Positions 456 through 29,625 of a stretch of 39,718 nt of DNA are shown piece by piece; position 1 is the first letter of the stretch, and each line of letters begins with the position of its first letter. The DNA is taken from the sequence record PQ850601.1; one strand, given 5' to 3'. This stretch comes from Escherichia phage ElsieAttenhofer_Bas105. The position numbers and the translations under genes are program-made. The notes beneath the pieces are model-generated. The model searched no databases, was not told the origin of the DNA, and worked only from the letters and a program-made list of their open reading frames with translations.

Positions 456-459
456 GCGT

Positions 460-512
460 TAGACTCAAGGTCATTACTATATGTAGTGGCCTTTATGGTT
501 AACACTAACTAG
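460..512 (+). promoter_or_regulatory. RNase III-type processing stem-loop (R18.5-like), copy 1 of a conserved element
   Basis: Stem AAGGTCATTAC (467-477) / GTAGTGGCCTT (483-493) with loop TATAT and two G-U pairs; conserved flanks TAGACTCAAGG and TTATGGTTAAC; same element recurs at 9843-9896 and 16779-16825 with compensatory changes. Confidence 0.5.
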
Positions 513-1607: not shown

Positions 1608-3367
1608 GTAAAGACTTAGTGGCGCGTCAGGCGCTAATGACTGCACGTATGAAGGCAGACTTCGTGTTCTTCCTGTTCGTCCTGTGGAAAGCTCTGTCAC
1701 TCCCAGTCCCGACTCGCTGTCAGATTGACATGGCGAAGAAACTATCGGCTGGGGACAACAGGCGCTTCATCCTACAGGCGTTCCGTGGTATAGGGAAGTC
1801 CTTTATTACGTGTGCCTTCGTTGTCTGGAAGCTATGGAACAACCCAGACTTGAAGTTCATGATTGTGTCGGCCTCAAAGGAACGAGCTGATGCTAACTCC
1901 ATCTTCATCAAGCGAATCATCGACCTCATGCCTCAGCTTCAGGAACTCAAACCTAAGCAGGGACAGCGAGATGCGGTTATCAGCTTCGACGTCGGACCAG
2001 CCAAGCCAGACCACTCACCTTCGGTTAAGTCCGTTGGTATCACTGGTCAGTTGACTGGTAGTCGTGCTGACATCCTGATTGCCGATGACGTGGAGGTTCC
2101 GAACAACTCAGCGACTCAGGCTGCCCGAGACCGTCTGTCAGAGCTTGTGAAGGAGTTCGACGCTATCCTGAAGCCGGGAGGTACAATCATCTATCTGGGT
2201 ACTCCTCAGAACGAGATGACCTTGTATCGTGAGCTGGAAGGCCGTGGGTACACCACTACTATCTGGCCTGCTCGTTATCCACGCGACAGGAAGGACTGGC
2301 AGTCTTACGGAGACCGTCTGGCTCCCATGCTTCAGGCAGAGCTTGAAGAGGACCCTGAGGCCTTCTATTGGCGTCCGACCGATGAAGTTCGATTCGACGA
2401 TACTGACCTGAAGGAACGTGAGCTGTCCTACGGTAAAGCTGGCTTCGCTCTACAGTTCATGCTTAACCCGAACCTAAGTGATGCTGAGAAGTACCCTCTG
2501 AAGCTCCGTGACCTTATCGTAGCCGACTTGGACCCAGCGTCCAGCCCAATGGTCTACCAATGGTTGCCTAACCCTCAGAACAAGCGTGAGGACGTTCCTA
2601 ACGTTGGACTCATGGGTGACTCATACCACACGTATCAAACTGTAGGTTCTGCCTTCAGTTCGTACACCCAGAAGATTTTGGTCATTGACCCTAGTGGTCG
2701 TGGTAAGGATGAAACTGGCTATGCGGTACTGTACCAGCTCAACGGCTACATCTTCGCTATGGAAGTTGGTGGTATGCGTGGTGGTTATGAAGACTCTACG
2801 CTGGAAGTACTAGCTAAGATTGGTCGTAAGTGGAAGGTCAACGAATACGTCATTGAGGGTAACTTCGGTGATGGTATGTACCTTGAGCTATTCAAGCCTG
2901 TAGCGGCCCGTATCCATCCTGCGGCTGTAACTGAAGTGAAGAGTAAGGGTCAGAAAGAACTCCGAATCTGTGACGTTCTGGAGCCTATCATGGGGTCTCA
3001 CCGACTTATCGTTAACGCTGCTGCTATCGTCCAAGACTACCAGTCGGCCTCTGATAAGGATGGTGTTCGTAACCCTATCTACTCTCTCTTCTACCAGATG
3101 ACACGTATCTCTCGTGAACGTGGAGCCTTGGCACACGATGACCGACTTGACGCGCTGGCTATAGGTGTACAGTTCTTCGTTGAGTCTATGGCTAAGGATG
3201 CCAACAAGGGCGAACGTGAAGTCACTGAGGAGTGGCTGGAGGAACAGATGGAGAACCCACGGAAAGGCTTCGAGTCCATCCACACTGAGTTCTGGGACAA
3301 TGGGGTCCGGGTAACTCACGATACGGACGACGAGCTGGGACTAGGGTCATACGTTACGTTCCACTAG
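1604..3367 (+). CDS. Terminase large subunit (T7 gene 19 homolog), TTG start
   Basis: 587-aa ORF colinear with remembered T7 gp19 ([19 protein letters not shown] Walker A-like, [24 protein letters not shown] nuclease); N-terminal alignment and TAAGGAGG 7 nt upstream support the TTG start at 1604. Confidence 0.95.
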
Positions 3368-3461
3368 CTGAATGAATAATTATAGGTGAAAGCTGCATGA
3401 ATACGCGGTTAGTAACCTATAGTTACTACCAGTCTAACCTACTGTTTTACAAGGAGTTTTG

Positions 3462-4022: not shown

Positions 4023-4108
4023 AGTGACGATGAGTTTTGGACCAAAAGTTTGAGACCACATCTCACAGTTCAAGAACCTCAAGTCTCCCCATAGGCCCTC
4101 TTTTAGTC

Positions 4109-9827: not shown

Positions 9828-9845
9828 ACTATCACTATAGGATTA
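9823..9845 (+). promoter_or_regulatory. Phage RNAP promoter (phi1.1-like)
   Basis: CTAAACTATCACTATAGGATT; predicted +1 at 9840. Confidence 0.7.
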
Positions 9846-9896
9846 GACTCAAGGTCATGACTCAAAGTCGTGGCCTTCATGATTAACCCTAACTCA
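9843..9896 (+). promoter_or_regulatory. RNase III-type processing stem-loop (R1.1-like), copy 2
   Basis: Stem AGGTCATGAC (9852-9861) / GTCGTGGCCT (9867-9876), loop TCAAA, two G-U pairs; conserved flanks as in copy 1. Confidence 0.5.
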
Positions 9897-14852: not shown

Positions 14853-16598
<1,746 letters not shown>

Positions 16599-16599
<1 letters not shown>

Positions 16600-16763
16600 T
16601 GTTAAATAAACTTAAAGCTCGATACCATCGGTTCATGTACAAATGGTGGAGCGATGAAGCAACCTACCTGTCGAACATTCTGGGAGACCAGCGGTTCAAC
16701 TCTGAGGCATGGAAGAAAGCTAACCGGAAGTTCATATATCACTTCTTGCGTACAGACTACTAA
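16599..16763 (+). CDS. Small hypothetical protein (54 aa, GTG start)
   Basis: GTG with GGAGG 8 nt upstream; translation VLNKLKARYHRFMYKWWSDEATYLSNILGDQRFNSEAWKKANRKFIYHFLRTDY; lies between gene 4 and the next promoter. Confidence 0.35.
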
Positions 16764-16781
16764 GCTATCACTGTAGGATAG
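16759..16781 (+). promoter_or_regulatory. Phage RNAP promoter (variant)
   Basis: ACTAAGCTATCACTGTAGGATAG; +1 at 16776. Confidence 0.5.
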
Positions 16782-25029: not shown

Positions 25030-25052
25030 ACTAAACTATCACTATAGGGAGA
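25030..25052 (+). promoter_or_regulatory. Phage RNAP promoter (phi10-like, strongest consensus match)
   Basis: ACTAAACTATCACTATAGGGAGA; +1 at 25047; shares CACTATAGGGAGA with the T7 class III promoters. Confidence 0.85.
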
Positions 25053-26211: not shown

Positions 26212-26342
26212 GCACTTTTAGCCAACCTAACGTCGCTACAGTAGCGGCTGCACCTGAAGAGGAGACTCTAACTCCTCAACAGAAAGCTGCGCGTACTCGT
26301 GCTGCGAACAGGGCCGCTAAACTGGCTGAGTCCAACAACTAA
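25168..26342 (+). CDS. Minor capsid protein 10B produced by -1 frameshift (predicted)
   Basis: Joining the 10A frame up to 26196 with the -1 frame adds the C-terminal extension GFQPSGVSTFSQPNVATVAAAPEEETLTPQQKAARTRAANRAAKLAESNN. Confidence 0.5.
26190..26196 (+). other. Programmed -1 ribosomal frameshift slippery site G GTT TTC
   Basis: Heptamer GGTTTTC four codons before the 10A stop, identical to the T7 10A/10B slip site; the -1 frame stays open for a further 49 codons to TAA at 26340-26342. Confidence 0.6.
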
Positions 26343-26346
26343 TTGA

Positions 26347-26387
26347 AACCCCTTGGGTGCCTTCGGGTGCTTGAGGGGTTTTTTTTG
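26347..26387 (+). terminator. Tphi-like intrinsic terminator downstream of the capsid gene
   Basis: AACCCCTTGGGTGCC-TTCG-GGTGCTTGAGGGGTT hairpin with G-U pairs followed by an 8-T run; same architecture as T7 Tphi. Confidence 0.8.
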
Positions 26388-26407
26388 CTTAAAGTGAGAG
26401 GAGACTT

Positions 26408-26974
26408 ATGGCTCAATACATTCCACTGAATGCTAACGATGACTTAGATGCCATCAACGATATGTTAGCTGCTATCGGTGAACCAGCAGTCCTGCAGCTT
26501 GACGAAGGCAATGCTGACGTCTCGAATGCTCAACGTATCCTGCATCGTGTCAATCGTCAGGTCCAAGCTAAAGGATGGAACTTTAACATTAATGAAGCTG
26601 CTGTCCTGACACCTGATGTCAAAGACAACAGGATTCGATTCCTACCGTCATACCTTCGTGTAATGACTGCCGGGGCCACCAGCTATTATAGCAACATGGG
26701 TGGATACCTGTACGACCTATCCACTCAGTCAACCACTTTCACCGACCCCATAACGGTAGAGCTTGTTGAGATGAAACCATTCTCTGAGATGCCAGTGGTC
26801 TTCAGGGACTACATCGTTACCAAGGCTAGCCGTGAGTTCAACGCTAAGTTCTTCGGTAGCCCAGAGTCTGAACTGTACCTTCGTGAGCAGGAAGCAGAAC
26901 TCTATCAGCAGGTCATGGAATACGAGATGGATACTGGTCGCTACAACATGATGTCCGACATCGGGAGGGACTAA
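26408..26974 (+). CDS. Tail tubular protein A (T7 gene 11 homolog)
   Basis: 188 aa; INDMLAAIGEPAV, RQVQAKGWNFNI, FRDYIVTKASREFN, MEYEMDTGRYNM match remembered T7 gp11. Confidence 0.93.
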   Translation: MAQYIPLNANDDLDAINDMLAAIGEPAVLQLDEGNADVSNAQRILHRVNRQVQAKGWNFNINEAAVLTPDVKDNRIRFLPSYLRVMTAGATSYYSNMGGYLYDLSTQSTTFTDPITVELVEMKPFSEMPVVFRDYIVTKASREFNAKFFGSPESELYLREQEAELYQQVMEYEMDTGRYNMMSDIGRD

Positions 26975-27201
26975 TGGCTAGTCACAACCTGAAGATTAAC
27001 CGCCAGCACTTTGGTCCGGTACAACTAGGTCTAAAGACAGCAGAGCTGAGACTTAACGACCGGGACTTTAAGGTTGGCGACTGGCTTATCCTGAATGAGT
27101 GGGACAACGGGTATACTGGACAACAGGTAGCACGTAAGGTTGTCCACATTGCTGACGTTGGTGACATCGCTGAGGGATACGTCCTAATGAGTATGATTTA
27201 A
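26974..27201 (+). CDS. DUF3850/ASCH-like small protein inserted between tail genes 11 and 12
   Basis: 75 aa; pattern LKI...HF..V..G.KT.E.R.NDRDFKVGDWLILNEW fits my recollection of the DUF3850 (PUA/ASCH-like fold) family; T7 has no gene here. Confidence 0.55.
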   Translation: MASHNLKINRQHFGPVQLGLKTAELRLNDRDFKVGDWLILNEWDNGYTGQQVARKVVHIADVGDIAEGYVLMSMI

Positions 27202-27210
27202 GGAGGGCCT

Positions 27211-29568
27211 ATGCCACTAATTACTCAATCAATCAAGAACCTTAAAGGTGGTATTAGCCAGCAGCCAGACATACTGAGGTTCTCAGACCAAGGCGAGGCA
27301 CAGGTTAACTGCTGGTCATCAGAGAGTGATGGCCTCCAGAAGCGTCCACCTACAGTCTTCAAGCGACGTCTTAACATCGACGTTGGGAGCAACCCTAAGT
27401 TCCACCTGATTAACCGTGATGAGCAGGAGCAGTATTACATCGTGTTCAACGGGTCCAACATTCAGGTAGTTGACTTGAGTGGTAATCAATACTCAGTTTC
27501 CGGTGCGGTAGATTACGTTAAGTCGTCCAACCCGCGAGATGACATCCGTGTCGTTACCGTTGCAGACTATACGTTCATCGTGAACCGTAAGGTTGTCGTT
27601 AAAGGTGGAAGCGAGAAGTCACACTCTGGTTATAATCGGAAAGCTCGTGCTTTAATTAACCTGCGTGGTGGACAGTATGGTCGCACCCTTAAGGTAGGAA
27701 TCAACGGAGGCGTTAAGGTTGAGCATAAGCTGCCAGCAGGTAATGATGCCGAGAATGACCCTCCTAAGGTGGATGCTCAGGCCATCGGTGCAGCTCTGAG
27801 AGACCTTCTTGTTGCTGCTTACCCTACCTTCACGTTCGACCTTGGGTCTGGCTTCCTGTTAATCACTGCCCCTTCAGGGACTGACATTAACTCAGTGGAG
27901 ACGGAGGATGGCTACGCTAACCAGCTAATCAGCCCAGTACTCGACACGGTGCAGACAATCTCTAAGTTGCCTCTTGCAGCTCCAAATGGGTACATCATTA
28001 AGATTCAAGGTGAGACCAACAGTAGCGCCGATGAATATTACGTGATGTATGACTCCAACACTAAGACGTGGAAGGAGACAGTAGAGCCAGGAGTGGTCAC
28101 TGGGTTCGATAACACCACAATGCCACATGCTCTGGTTAGACAATCTGACGGCTCCTTTGAGTTCAAGACTCTGGACTGGTCTAAGCGTGGTGCTGGTAAT
28201 GATGACACAAACCCTATGCCTAGCTTCGTGGATGCCACGATTAACGATGTGTTCTTCTACAGGAATAGGCTGGGGTTCTTGTCAGGCGAGAACGTAATCA
28301 TGAGCCGTTCAGCAAGCTACTTTGCGTTCTTCCCTAAGAGTGTGGCGACACTGAGTGATGATGATCCTATTGACGTAGCTGTAAGTCACCCTAGAATCTC
28401 AATCCTTAAGTATGCCGTTCCGTTTAGCGAGCAGCTACTACTTTGGTCAGATGAGGTGCAGTTCGTGATGACAAGCTCAGGGGTCCTTACCTCGAAGTCT
28501 ATCCAGCTTGATGTAGGCTCAGAGTTTGCCTTAGGAGATAATGCCAGACCGTTCGCTGTGGGACGCTCAGTCTTCTTCTCAGCACCTCGTGGGTCATTCA
28601 CCAGTATTAAGCGATACTTCGCTGTAGCAGATGTGTCTGACGTGAAGGATGCCGATGATACCACTGGTCACGTACTGTCCTATATCCCTAACGGGGTGTT
28701 TGACATTCAAGGTACAGGGACTGAGAACTACATCTGCGTCAACTCTACAGGTGCATACAACCGAATCTACATCTACAAGTTCTTGTTTAAGGACGGCGTA
28801 CAGCTTCAAGCCTCTTGGTCGCACTGGGAGTTCCCTAAAGCTGATAAGATTCTGGCGTCTGCGTCGATTGGCTCTACCATGTTCATTGTTCGTCAGCACC
28901 AAGGTGGCGTGGACCTTGAGCACCTTAAGTTCATCAAGGAGGCAACTGACTTTCCATTAGAGCCGTATAGACTCCACGTTGACTCCAAGGTGTCTATGGT
29001 AATACCAATTGGCTCATACAACGCTGACACCTATAAGACTACGGTTGACATTGGTTCTGCTTATGGTGGAAACGCTCCGTCTCCCGGTAGGTACTATCTG
29101 ATTGACAGTCAGGGTGCCTACGTGGACCTTGGTGAATTGACCGACATCTCAACTGTGGCTGTACTCAATGGAGATTGGTCAGGACGTACAGTGTTCATCG
29201 GACGGTCTTATCTGATGTCCTACAAGTTCTCACGGTTCCTGATTAAGATTGAAGACGAGAGTGGCACTCAGTCTGAAGACACTGGACGCCTACAACTTCG
29301 TCGGGCTTGGGTAAACTACAAGGACACTGGCGCTCTTAGGCTCATTGTCAGAAACGGTGAGAGGGAGTTCGTGAACACCTTCAACGGGTACACCCTTGGC
29401 CAGCAAACCATCGGTACTACCAACATTGGGGACGGTCAGTATCGCTTCGCTATGAATGGTAACGCATTAACCACGAGTCTAACCTTAGAGTCAGATTATC
29501 CTACCCCAGTGTCCATCGTTGGCTGTGGCTGGGAGGCGTCATACGCTAAGAAAGCTCGTTCCGTCTAA
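27211..29568 (+). CDS. Tail tubular protein B (T7 gene 12 homolog)
   Basis: 785 aa; SQSIKNLKGGISQQPDILR, VTVADYTFIVNR, INDVFFYRNRLGFLSGEN, DDDPIDVAVS, LQLRRAWVNY, IVGCGWE match remembered T7 gp12. Confidence 0.95.
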   Translation: MPLITQSIKNLKGGISQQPDILRFSDQGEAQVNCWSSESDGLQKRPPTVFKRRLNIDVGSNPKFHLINRDEQEQYYIVFNGSNIQVVDLSGNQYSVSGAVDYVKSSNPRDDIRVVTVADYTFIVNRKVVVKGGSEKSHSGYNRKARALINLRGGQYGRTLKVGINGGVKVEHKLPAGNDAENDPPKVDAQAIGAALRDLLVAAYPTFTFDLGSGFLLITAPSGTDINSVETEDGYANQLISPVLDTVQTISKLPLAAPNGYIIKIQGETNSSADEYYVMYDSNTKTWKETVEPGVVTGFDNTTMPHALVRQSDGSFEFKTLDWSKRGAGNDDTNPMPSFVDATINDVFFYRNRLGFLSGENVIMSRSASYFAFFPKSVATLSDDDPIDVAVSHPRISILKYAVPFSEQLLLWSDEVQFVMTSSGVLTSKSIQLDVGSEFALGDNARPFAVGRSVFFSAPRGSFTSIKRYFAVADVSDVKDADDTTGHVLSYIPNGVFDIQGTGTENYICVNSTGAYNRIYIYKFLFKDGVQLQASWSHWEFPKADKILASASIGSTMFIVRQHQGGVDLEHLKFIKEATDFPLEPYRLHVDSKVSMVIPIGSYNADTYKTTVDIGSAYGGNAPSPGRYYLIDSQGAYVDLGELTDISTVAVLNGDWSGRTVFIGRSYLMSYKFSRFLIKIEDESGTQSEDTGRLQLRRAWVNYKDTGALRLIVRNGEREFVNTFNGYTLGQQTIGTTNIGDGQYRFAMNGNALTTSLTLESDYPTPVSIVGCGWEASYAKKARSV

Positions 29569-29575
29569 CTTATTG

Positions 29576-29625
29576 AAGGGCCTATAGATTTACCTTAACT
29601 ATCACTATAGGGACTATAGGCCCTT
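29576..29625 (+). promoter_or_regulatory. 12-bp perfect inverted repeat enclosing the phi13-like promoter (candidate R13-type RNase III site)
   Basis: AAGGGCCTATAG (29576-29587) and its reverse complement CTATAGGCCCTT (29614-29625) flank the promoter core. Confidence 0.45.
29593..29615 (+). promoter_or_regulatory. Phage RNAP promoter (phi13-like)
   Basis: CCTTAACTATCACTATAGGGACT; +1 at 29610. Confidence 0.75.

Follow-up and report, generated by a model that had tools for sequence, protein, structure and literature searches.

A small DUF3850 gene between tail genes 11 and 12 of K1F-like phages: expression, history and candidate function

A 75-codon gene lying between two adjacent tail genes of a T7-like phage raises the questions of what its protein is, how the gene came to be there, and what it does for the phage. 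The locus belongs to Escherichia phage ElsieAttenhofer_Bas105 (PQ850601.1), of which a stretch of 39,718 nucleotides was analysed (hereafter, the window), and which is a member of Kayfunavirus (K1F-like phages, Studiervirinae, the T7 subfamily). A first-pass annotation had reported a 75-aa ORF between genes 11 and 12, and in the ORF list of the window this ORF was found exactly at 26974..27201 on the plus strand, encoding the 8.5-kDa protein MASHNLKINRQHFGPVQLGLKTAELRLNDRDFKVGDWLILNEWDNGYTGQQVARKVVHIADVGDIAEGYVLMSMI. It should be mentioned that the gene is already known and is an ordinary accessory gene. The exact window protein is found in a 253-member cluster at 90% identity in public assemblies, this cluster includes GenBank and UniRef entries under the names "DUF3850 domain-containing protein", "RNA-binding protein" or "hypothetical protein", and the gene is annotated in the same slot in more than 100 phage records. 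The Kayfunavirus orthologues share with the window the slot, the 75-aa length and the same TAATG coupling, and are 95-98.7% identical. The EcoDS1 copy (AS9_0040 / ACF15818.1) is named "unknown product", RefSeq uses "RNA-binding protein", and the copies of phages 6925, FFK3 and EPr2 are named "DUF3850 domain-containing protein". A single substitution (N9 for H9) separates the window copy from the commonest orthologue sequence. The gene 11-12 block shares 96-98% identity with those of EPr2, BDX03P1 and EcoDS1, and the left 25 kb of the window is about 92-95% identical to the nearest GenBank genomes.

Table 1. Coordinates of the DUF3850 gene, its neighbours and the surrounding expression signals in the window.
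Feature	Coordinates	Strand	Basis or remark
Phage RNA polymerase promoter, phi10 equivalent, nearest upstream of the ORF	25032..25048	+	Exact core TAAACTATCACTATAGG
T-phi-like intrinsic terminator after gene 10	26345..26390	+	17-bp stem, then T run
Gene 11 (tail tubular protein A / adaptor)	26408..26974	+	Pfam Tube PF17212, E=3.9e-46
Shine-Dalgarno GGGAGGG of the ORF	26963..26969	+	Gly-Arg codons GGG AGG, gene 11 end
DUF3850/ASCH gene, 75 aa	26974..27201	+	ATG overlaps gene 11 stop (TAATG)
Codons G19-L-K21-T-A-E24-L-R26-L-N28-D29-R30 (ASCH octapeptide GxKxxExR and NDR)	27028..27063	+	Conservation in 149 representatives
Gene 12 Shine-Dalgarno AAGGAGG, retained 3' of the ORF	27200..27206	+	Aligns with T7, T3, CR8 and Kc166A
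Gene 12 (tail tubular protein B / nozzle)	27211..29568	+	Pfam Phage_nozzle PF25675, 1097 bits, E=0
Phage promoter, phi13 equivalent, first downstream of the ORF	29595..29611	+	Annotated phi13 in EcoDS1

As shown in Table 1, the ORF is tightly packed between its neighbours: its ATG and the gene 11 stop share one base, and gene 12 starts 9 nt after the ORF end. Among 15 distinct orthologous DNA sequences, the median dN/dS was 0.109 (90 pairs with dS>0.05), and the most distant comparison gave a dS of about 2 with a dN of 0.24. Judged from these comparisons, the ORF is a genuine gene under selection. No compositional difference in GC or GC3 was found between the ORF (0.482 and 0.526) and genes 11 (0.483 and 0.545) and 12 (0.493 and 0.537). 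A search of the whole window against Rfam at gathering thresholds returned no RNA element, and thus none that would replace or overlap the ORF. The antisense ORFs at 26982-27167 and 27031-27147 on the minus strand, which lie within the gene, were dismissed, because all 12 phage promoters are on the plus strand and no minus-strand promoter-like site is found nearby. The ORF and gene 12 stand in one reading frame (window 26974-27213), with TAA and three codons between them. A read-through fusion of the two was rejected, given that the spacing is 239 nt in GA2A against 237 and that the stop is TAA.

The first-pass annotation had assigned the protein to DUF3850 (PF12961), with an ASCH-like fold, and the Pfam search bore this out. 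DUF3850 matched at E=1.8e-19 with 70.1 bits against a cutoff of 22.9 (residues 4-73, model positions 2-76 of 77), and ASCH (PF04266) matched at E=3.2e-5 with 25.0 bits against a cutoff of 21.2, over model positions 11-61 of 103 only. The protein also matched PHROG 986 ("RNA-binding protein") at E=1.3e-34; a search of NCBIfam with the 75-aa protein gave no match. The sole relative in the PDB found by sequence is 3IUW of Enterococcus faecalis (E=1.3e-10 with the single sequence, 2.7e-19 with a profile), a solved DUF3850 member whose fold the 75-aa protein is predicted to share. The 3IUW protein (NP_814290.1, named "activating signal cointegrator", from structural genomics) is a bacterial or prophage protein and is uninformative on substrate. 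The AlphaFold2 model is a small beta-barrel with one helix (pLDDT 84.8, pTM 0.70), in which residues 21-30, the motif loop, are the least confident part (pLDDT about 61).

A word-indexed protein search returned 31 matches, close relatives only, and it was an exhaustive profile search that showed the family, with 16,115 representative clusters (defined at 50% identity) at E<=1e-3 and 5,281 at E<=1e-10. Conservation was analysed in the 149 best representatives, with mutual identity of no more than 50%. DUF3850 was matched in all 149 and ASCH also in 115 of them. Fusion partners were few, namely DUF551 in 11 representatives and LexA/HTH or dATP/dGTP pyrophosphohydrolase in single cases, and no ParB domain was found in this set. 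Of the 21 positions that are at least 90% conserved, the window protein differs at one, by the conservative L72M, and retains 20. The conserved positions kept include H4, L6, K7, V16, G19, K21, E24, R26, N28, D29, R30, G35, D36, L38, L40, E42, T48, G49, Y69, V70 and S73. Among the 149 representatives, K21, E24, R26, D29 and R30 never vary, and the conservation of G19 and N28 is at least 96%. Residues 21-43 of the protein read K.ELRLNDRDFKVGDWLILNEW, a pattern also given as KTAELRLNDRDFKVGDWLILNEW, and the family-invariant set of DUF3850, K-x-x-E-x-R-x-N-D-R together with H4, K7, G35, D36, E42, T48, G49, Y69 and S73, is present in the protein. Moreover, G19-L-K21-T-A-E24-L-R26 (GLKTAELR) fits the ASCH signature GxKxx[E/T/S]xR, and the invariant NDR motif (N28-D29-R30) is specific to DUF3850. 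On the profile matches and the predicted model, the protein is a minimal stand-alone DUF3850 domain with a PUA-like/ASCH beta-barrel.

The expected expression of the ORF was deduced from the signals around it. The promoter core TAAACTATCACTATAGG occurs in 12 copies in the window, all on the plus strand, where 0.03 would be expected by chance. Genes 11 and 12 and the ORF are on the same strand, between the post-gene-10 terminator and the phi13 promoter; a terminator is annotated at the equivalent position in EcoDS1, T7 and T3, whose annotation shows the same layout, with genes 11 and 12 downstream of T-phi. No phage promoter was found between 25048 and 29595, and no sigma-70-like or terminator-like site in 26974-27210. 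By its position the ORF would qualify as a T7-type class III (late) gene. Since it has no transcription signals of its own and its start overlaps the gene 11 stop in TAATG, we infer late production together with the tail genes, with translation coupled to that of gene 11.

The first-pass annotation had described the gene as a moron-type insertion, and this description held in part. Like the lambdoid morons, it is an extra gene between adjacent conserved structural genes, unrelated in function to its neighbours, and is absent in many relatives, so that the variable presence at the junction stood. Unlike the lambdoid morons, it has no promoter or terminator of its own, its composition is that of its neighbours, and it would depend on translational coupling to gene 11, so that neither the transcription signals nor the compositional difference of a moron was found.

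Other features of the late region can also be observed. The region between the gene 10 stop and the terminator (window 26212-26341) corresponds to one annotated in EcoDS1 as similar to the frameshift extension gp10B, and may encode a minor capsid protein made by frameshifting. Another small ORF (75 aa) lies between genes 10 and 11 in the Kosakonia phage Kc166A (locus L005, 2645-2872), as does the 64-aa ORF38 in phage B1 (PMC12785254); the gene 10-11 gap is a second variable slot of the late operon in some K1F-like phages, and the window has no ORF there. Additionally, a direct repeat of 52 nt with 85% identity is found at window positions 459-510 and 9843-9894, the second copy immediately downstream of the phage promoter at 9825.

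The junction of genes 11 and 12 was then compared among relatives. T7 had been said to have no gene at this point, and indeed only 23 nt separate its genes 11 and 12; the spacing is 15 nt in T3 and 11 nt in CR8. Among 56 other T7-like IMG/VR loci, 53 have 8-35 nt at this junction, and the remaining three have an EndoVII/HNH endonuclease ORF rather than DUF3850. Within the phages whose gp11 is at least 80% identical to that of the window, six junction states were defined. The ORF is present in the window, Kc166A, GA2A and most others (state A). It is precisely absent, with the gene 12 ATG on the TAATG, in K1F and 24 other GenBank records (state B). In state C the junction is a plain spacer of 11-13 nt, TAATAGGAGGTGATATG. 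In state D the ORF is followed by an Endonuclease_7 gene (KM02, E=2.2e-20; Hafnia phage yong1; phage B1), state E is a deletion remnant (LI10P1), and state F is a divergent copy in the same slot, 45% identical and without the NDR motif (IMG/VR contig L028). The comparison of the gp11-gp12 junction, which the first-pass annotation had proposed as a check, thus shows a variable ORF that is absent in K1F, in K1F-like phages with a plain spacer, and in T7, T3 and CR8. As rough frequencies, 217 GenBank records have a gp11 at least 80% identical and 155 a DUF3850 protein at least 80% identical, with the fused junction that lacks the ORF in 25 records; in IMG/VR the gene is found in 13 of 23 loci, the fused junction in one and the plain spacer in nine.

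Two of the copies deserve separate mention. The copy of L028 (3567-3785) keeps K-x-x-D-x-R, has PSIPEI in place of NDRDF and reaches 26.7 bits with Pfam DUF3850; it may have changed or be losing its function. In OP272491.1 (Enterobacter phage 02_vB_Eclo_IJM) the homologue at 16546-16769 appears in two BLAST pieces with 83% identity, which suggests a frameshifted copy, either a pseudogene or a sequencing error.

The direction of change can be read from the last codons of gene 11. The sequence GGG AGR GAC TAA TG is found in 19 of 19 loci with the ORF, a remnant or a K1F-type fusion (states A, B, D, E and F), preceded by the Ile codon ATC or ATT, whereas GGT CGA GAC TAA TAG, preceded by ATC, is found in all nine K1F-like plain-spacer loci (state C). 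GGT CGA and GGG AGR encode the same amino acids, and the gp11 C-terminus is IGRD; the outgroup CR8 has AGC CGA GAG TAA TAG. Across these 29 loci the codon choice at the gp11 C-terminus (window 26963-26971) tracks the junction type perfectly. Because the short spacers of T7, T3 and CR8 contain the gene 12 ribosome-binding site that is also found in the window, we conclude from the alignments that the plain spacer is most probably ancestral and that the ORF was inserted later.

The K1F state, on the other hand, is best read as a secondary loss. K1F (L001, DQ111067), the type phage of the genus, has positions 4055-4075 where the window has 26974-27210, an exact in-frame difference of 237 bp. Although it lacks the ORF, K1F keeps the GGG AGG codons; the junction alignment shows that it has lost the gene 12 ribosome-binding site AAGGAGG-n4-ATG, which the window has in common with T7, T3, CR8 and Kc166A; and in the gp12 tree the K1F-type fused loci nest inside the ORF-bearing clade. 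For these reasons we conclude that the K1F state probably arose secondarily, when 237 bp were deleted between the imperfect repeats GGAGGGaCTaATG and GGAGGGcCT-ATG, and a simple deletion between the two is enough to explain the loss. The repeats at the K1F deletion have the general form GGAGGGnCT(A)ATG. Moreover, haplotypes with the ORF and haplotypes with the plain spacer are intermixed on the gp12 tree, which suggests that co-infecting relatives have recombined. The proposed sequence of events is that an ancestor of part of the K1F-like group would have gained the ORF after the gene 11 stop and ahead of the gene 12 ribosome-binding site, that the last Gly-Arg codons of gene 11 would have become GGG AGG, giving the ORF its Shine-Dalgarno sequence, and that the ORF would be transcribed on late transcripts reading through T-phi, with its translation coupled to gene 11.

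EndoVII/HNH-type genes, which are probable homing endonucleases, are found repeatedly at the same junction: in KM02 (L006, 1306-1746), as a remnant in LI10P1 (L033, 1668-1796), and in other T7-like contigs at about 3070-3425 (L079), about 3080-3446 (L088) and 2748-3113 (L089). In the K1F-like phages the endonuclease lies downstream of DUF3850, and in the three contigs L079, L088 and L089 it is present without DUF3850. In LI10P1 the first five DUF3850 codons (MASHN) are fused in frame to the last 38 endonuclease codons, giving a 43-codon remnant joined through a CACAACC microhomology. The first ~40 nt of gene 12 occur as two alleles with many synonymous differences, ATGCCACTAATTACTCAATCAATCAAGAAC and ATGCCGCTTATyACrCAAAGCATAAAAAAT, as seen by comparing window 27211-27250 with L001 4067-4105, L006 1722-1760 and L033 1796-1830. 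The second allele accompanies the endonuclease, its remnant and the K1F-type deletions, and it also occurs where the ORF has no endonuclease beside it (LM33_P1). This allele may represent a tract of co-conversion or a target site that resists the endonuclease. A link between the K1F loss and a homing endonuclease was considered and dropped, since LM33_P1, HC12, HC13 and T147P5 have the ORF and the K1F-like 5' end of gene 12 with no endonuclease.

With regard to function, a literature search returned no experimental study of a DUF3850 protein. The domain is described as PUA-like, phage-enriched and often fused to ParB-CTPase domains (PMC12704722); these prophage fusions carry the same phage- and prophage-enriched domain, whereas the window protein stands alone, is not located by parA and is encoded in the tail operon of a lytic T7-like phage. 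The characterised relatives are ASCH hydrolases. YqfB of E. coli is an ac4C amidohydrolase whose catalysis depends on K21, T24, R26 and E74 (PMC9599836). A preprint that is not peer reviewed (10.64898/2026.02.27.708502) reports the removal of ac4C from tRNA by 19 ASCH proteins, drawn from both the GKER and the GKTR group and with no phage protein and no PF12961 member among them, and finds the Lys and Glu essential for this removal. According to the same work, ZmASCH and TRIP4, which have the GKER motif, do not hydrolyse free ac4C. An hhalign comparison with YqfB gave a weak match (probability 20%) that ends near residue 47 and was used only for the register of the octapeptide. In this register K21, E24 and R26 of the window protein align with K21, T24 and R26 of YqfB, so that position 24 has Glu rather than the Thr of the GKTR type, as in the GKER variant. 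The proteins also differ in other respects. YqfB and the GKER-type hydrolases (TthASCH, EOLA1, TRIP4) have 103-160 aa; the window protein stops at residue 75, shows no sequence equivalent of the helical C-terminal part in which YqfB has its acid E74, and has the additional N28-D29-R30. E42 or H58 would be candidates for a spatial equivalent of that acid.

Because it retains the Lys-Glu(-Arg) octapeptide that is catalytic in the characterised ASCH enzymes, the likeliest role of the protein is to bind a modified nucleoside or RNA base, which it may also hydrolyse. By analogy, N4-acylated cytidine (ac4C in tRNA, or the free nucleoside) would be the best current candidate substrate, while the NDR motif, being specific to DUF3850, may mean a substrate different from ac4C. 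Taken as a whole, the explanation by an accessory gene that was inserted, is expressed late by coupling and acts on a modified nucleoside has, in our estimate, about an even chance of being right.

A different reading of the same fold is that of a non-catalytic reader that binds RNA or a modified base as a small late regulator or chaperone of phage or host RNA. We regard this as possible but unlikely: the invariance of K21, E24 and R26 is more in keeping with a catalytic centre than with the surface of a reader, aromatic cages are what readers of the superfamily usually rely on, and no binding of nucleic acids by YqfB-type proteins was seen in gel shifts (PMC9599836).

The pattern of gain and loss would also suit a counter-defence or host-range factor that is useful only on hosts with a matching system, for example by reversing the acetylation of tRNA or nucleotides by GNAT-type toxins or by sequestering a nucleotide signal. 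Near-identical phages differ in whether they have the gene, and the losses are precise, a pattern typical of accessory conflict genes. Elsewhere the family turns up amid small accessory genes of early or replication regions, one case being the position directly after gene A of P2-like phages. Moreover, ASCH genes accompany (PIN)-GNAT-EVE operons in prokaryotes (PMC7641849), and anti-defence roles have been suggested for prophage ParB-CTPase fusions, including those with DUF3850 (PMC12704722). However, the only PADLOC match (PDC-M07B, E=0.0074, 14 bits) is insignificant and was treated as noise, expression coupled to a tail gene would be late for such a protein, and the K1F-type loss has no obvious host link among the records listed, with K1-specific and other hosts on both sides. 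A role of this kind thus appears distinctly doubtful.

The modified-nucleoside reading has a stronger form, to which we give only a slim chance, in which the protein would be the smallest natural ASCH-type amidohydrolase and would remove N4-acetyl or related acyl groups from host tRNA or nucleotides late in infection. If this were true, ac4C34 of elongator tRNA-Met could be erased, for example, or acetylation by a host GNAT-type toxin or abortive-infection system undone, and DUF3850 would be widespread among phages as a family of enzymes that erase RNA modifications or counter defence.

From the place of its gene between those of the tail tube, the protein might be taken for a tail assembly factor or a minor virion component, but this is poorly supported and very improbable. 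K1F, which lacks the ORF, has a gp11 99.5% identical to that of the window and a gp12 98% identical over its first 200 residues, and about 20 other isolates likewise build tails without the ORF. As these natural deletion variants have near-identical tail genes, they show that the ORF is not needed for tail assembly or viability. Furthermore, there is no gene at the junction in T7, T3 and 53 of the 56 other T7-like loci, and the Z-5 matches rank far below the ASCH matches and are generic small barrels. Elsewhere the family occurs in replication modules and not in tail modules. In Kagunavirus the DUF3850 gene neighbours that of the primase, a P2-like phage has it immediately behind gene A, a T1-like phage encodes it with its early genes, and in a Listeria phage SSB and the resolvase are close by. 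The tail-operon position is therefore better regarded as a chance insertion site than as a sign of tail function. With respect to K1F-like virion proteomics, the literature offered only a band-limited mass spectrometry analysis of phage B1, which is uninformative for a protein of 8.5 kDa.

Lastly, a decaying passenger without present function, left for instance by a homing endonuclease using the same junction, would agree with the EndoVII/HNH genes repeatedly hosted there, the LI10P1 remnant, the copy in two BLAST pieces and the loss of NDR in L028, but it is equally improbable and as poorly supported, because the median dN/dS is as low as 0.11, in comparisons that reach a dS of about 2, and all family-invariant residues are retained, and also in view of the absence of an endonuclease in most genomes with the gene and of gene 11 codons adapted to supply the Shine-Dalgarno sequence of the ORF.

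Phage and prophage proteins abound in the very large DUF3850 family, and the main value of the locus is that of a clean case of a small gene fitted into a packed late operon, through translational coupling and the synonymous recoding of the upstream gene 11. The K1F-like phages can also be regarded as a natural experiment, in which near-isogenic phages have the gene, its precise deletion or the ancestral junction. Since these phages offer a tractable T7-like background on E. coli, the function of a DUF3850 protein is directly testable in them.
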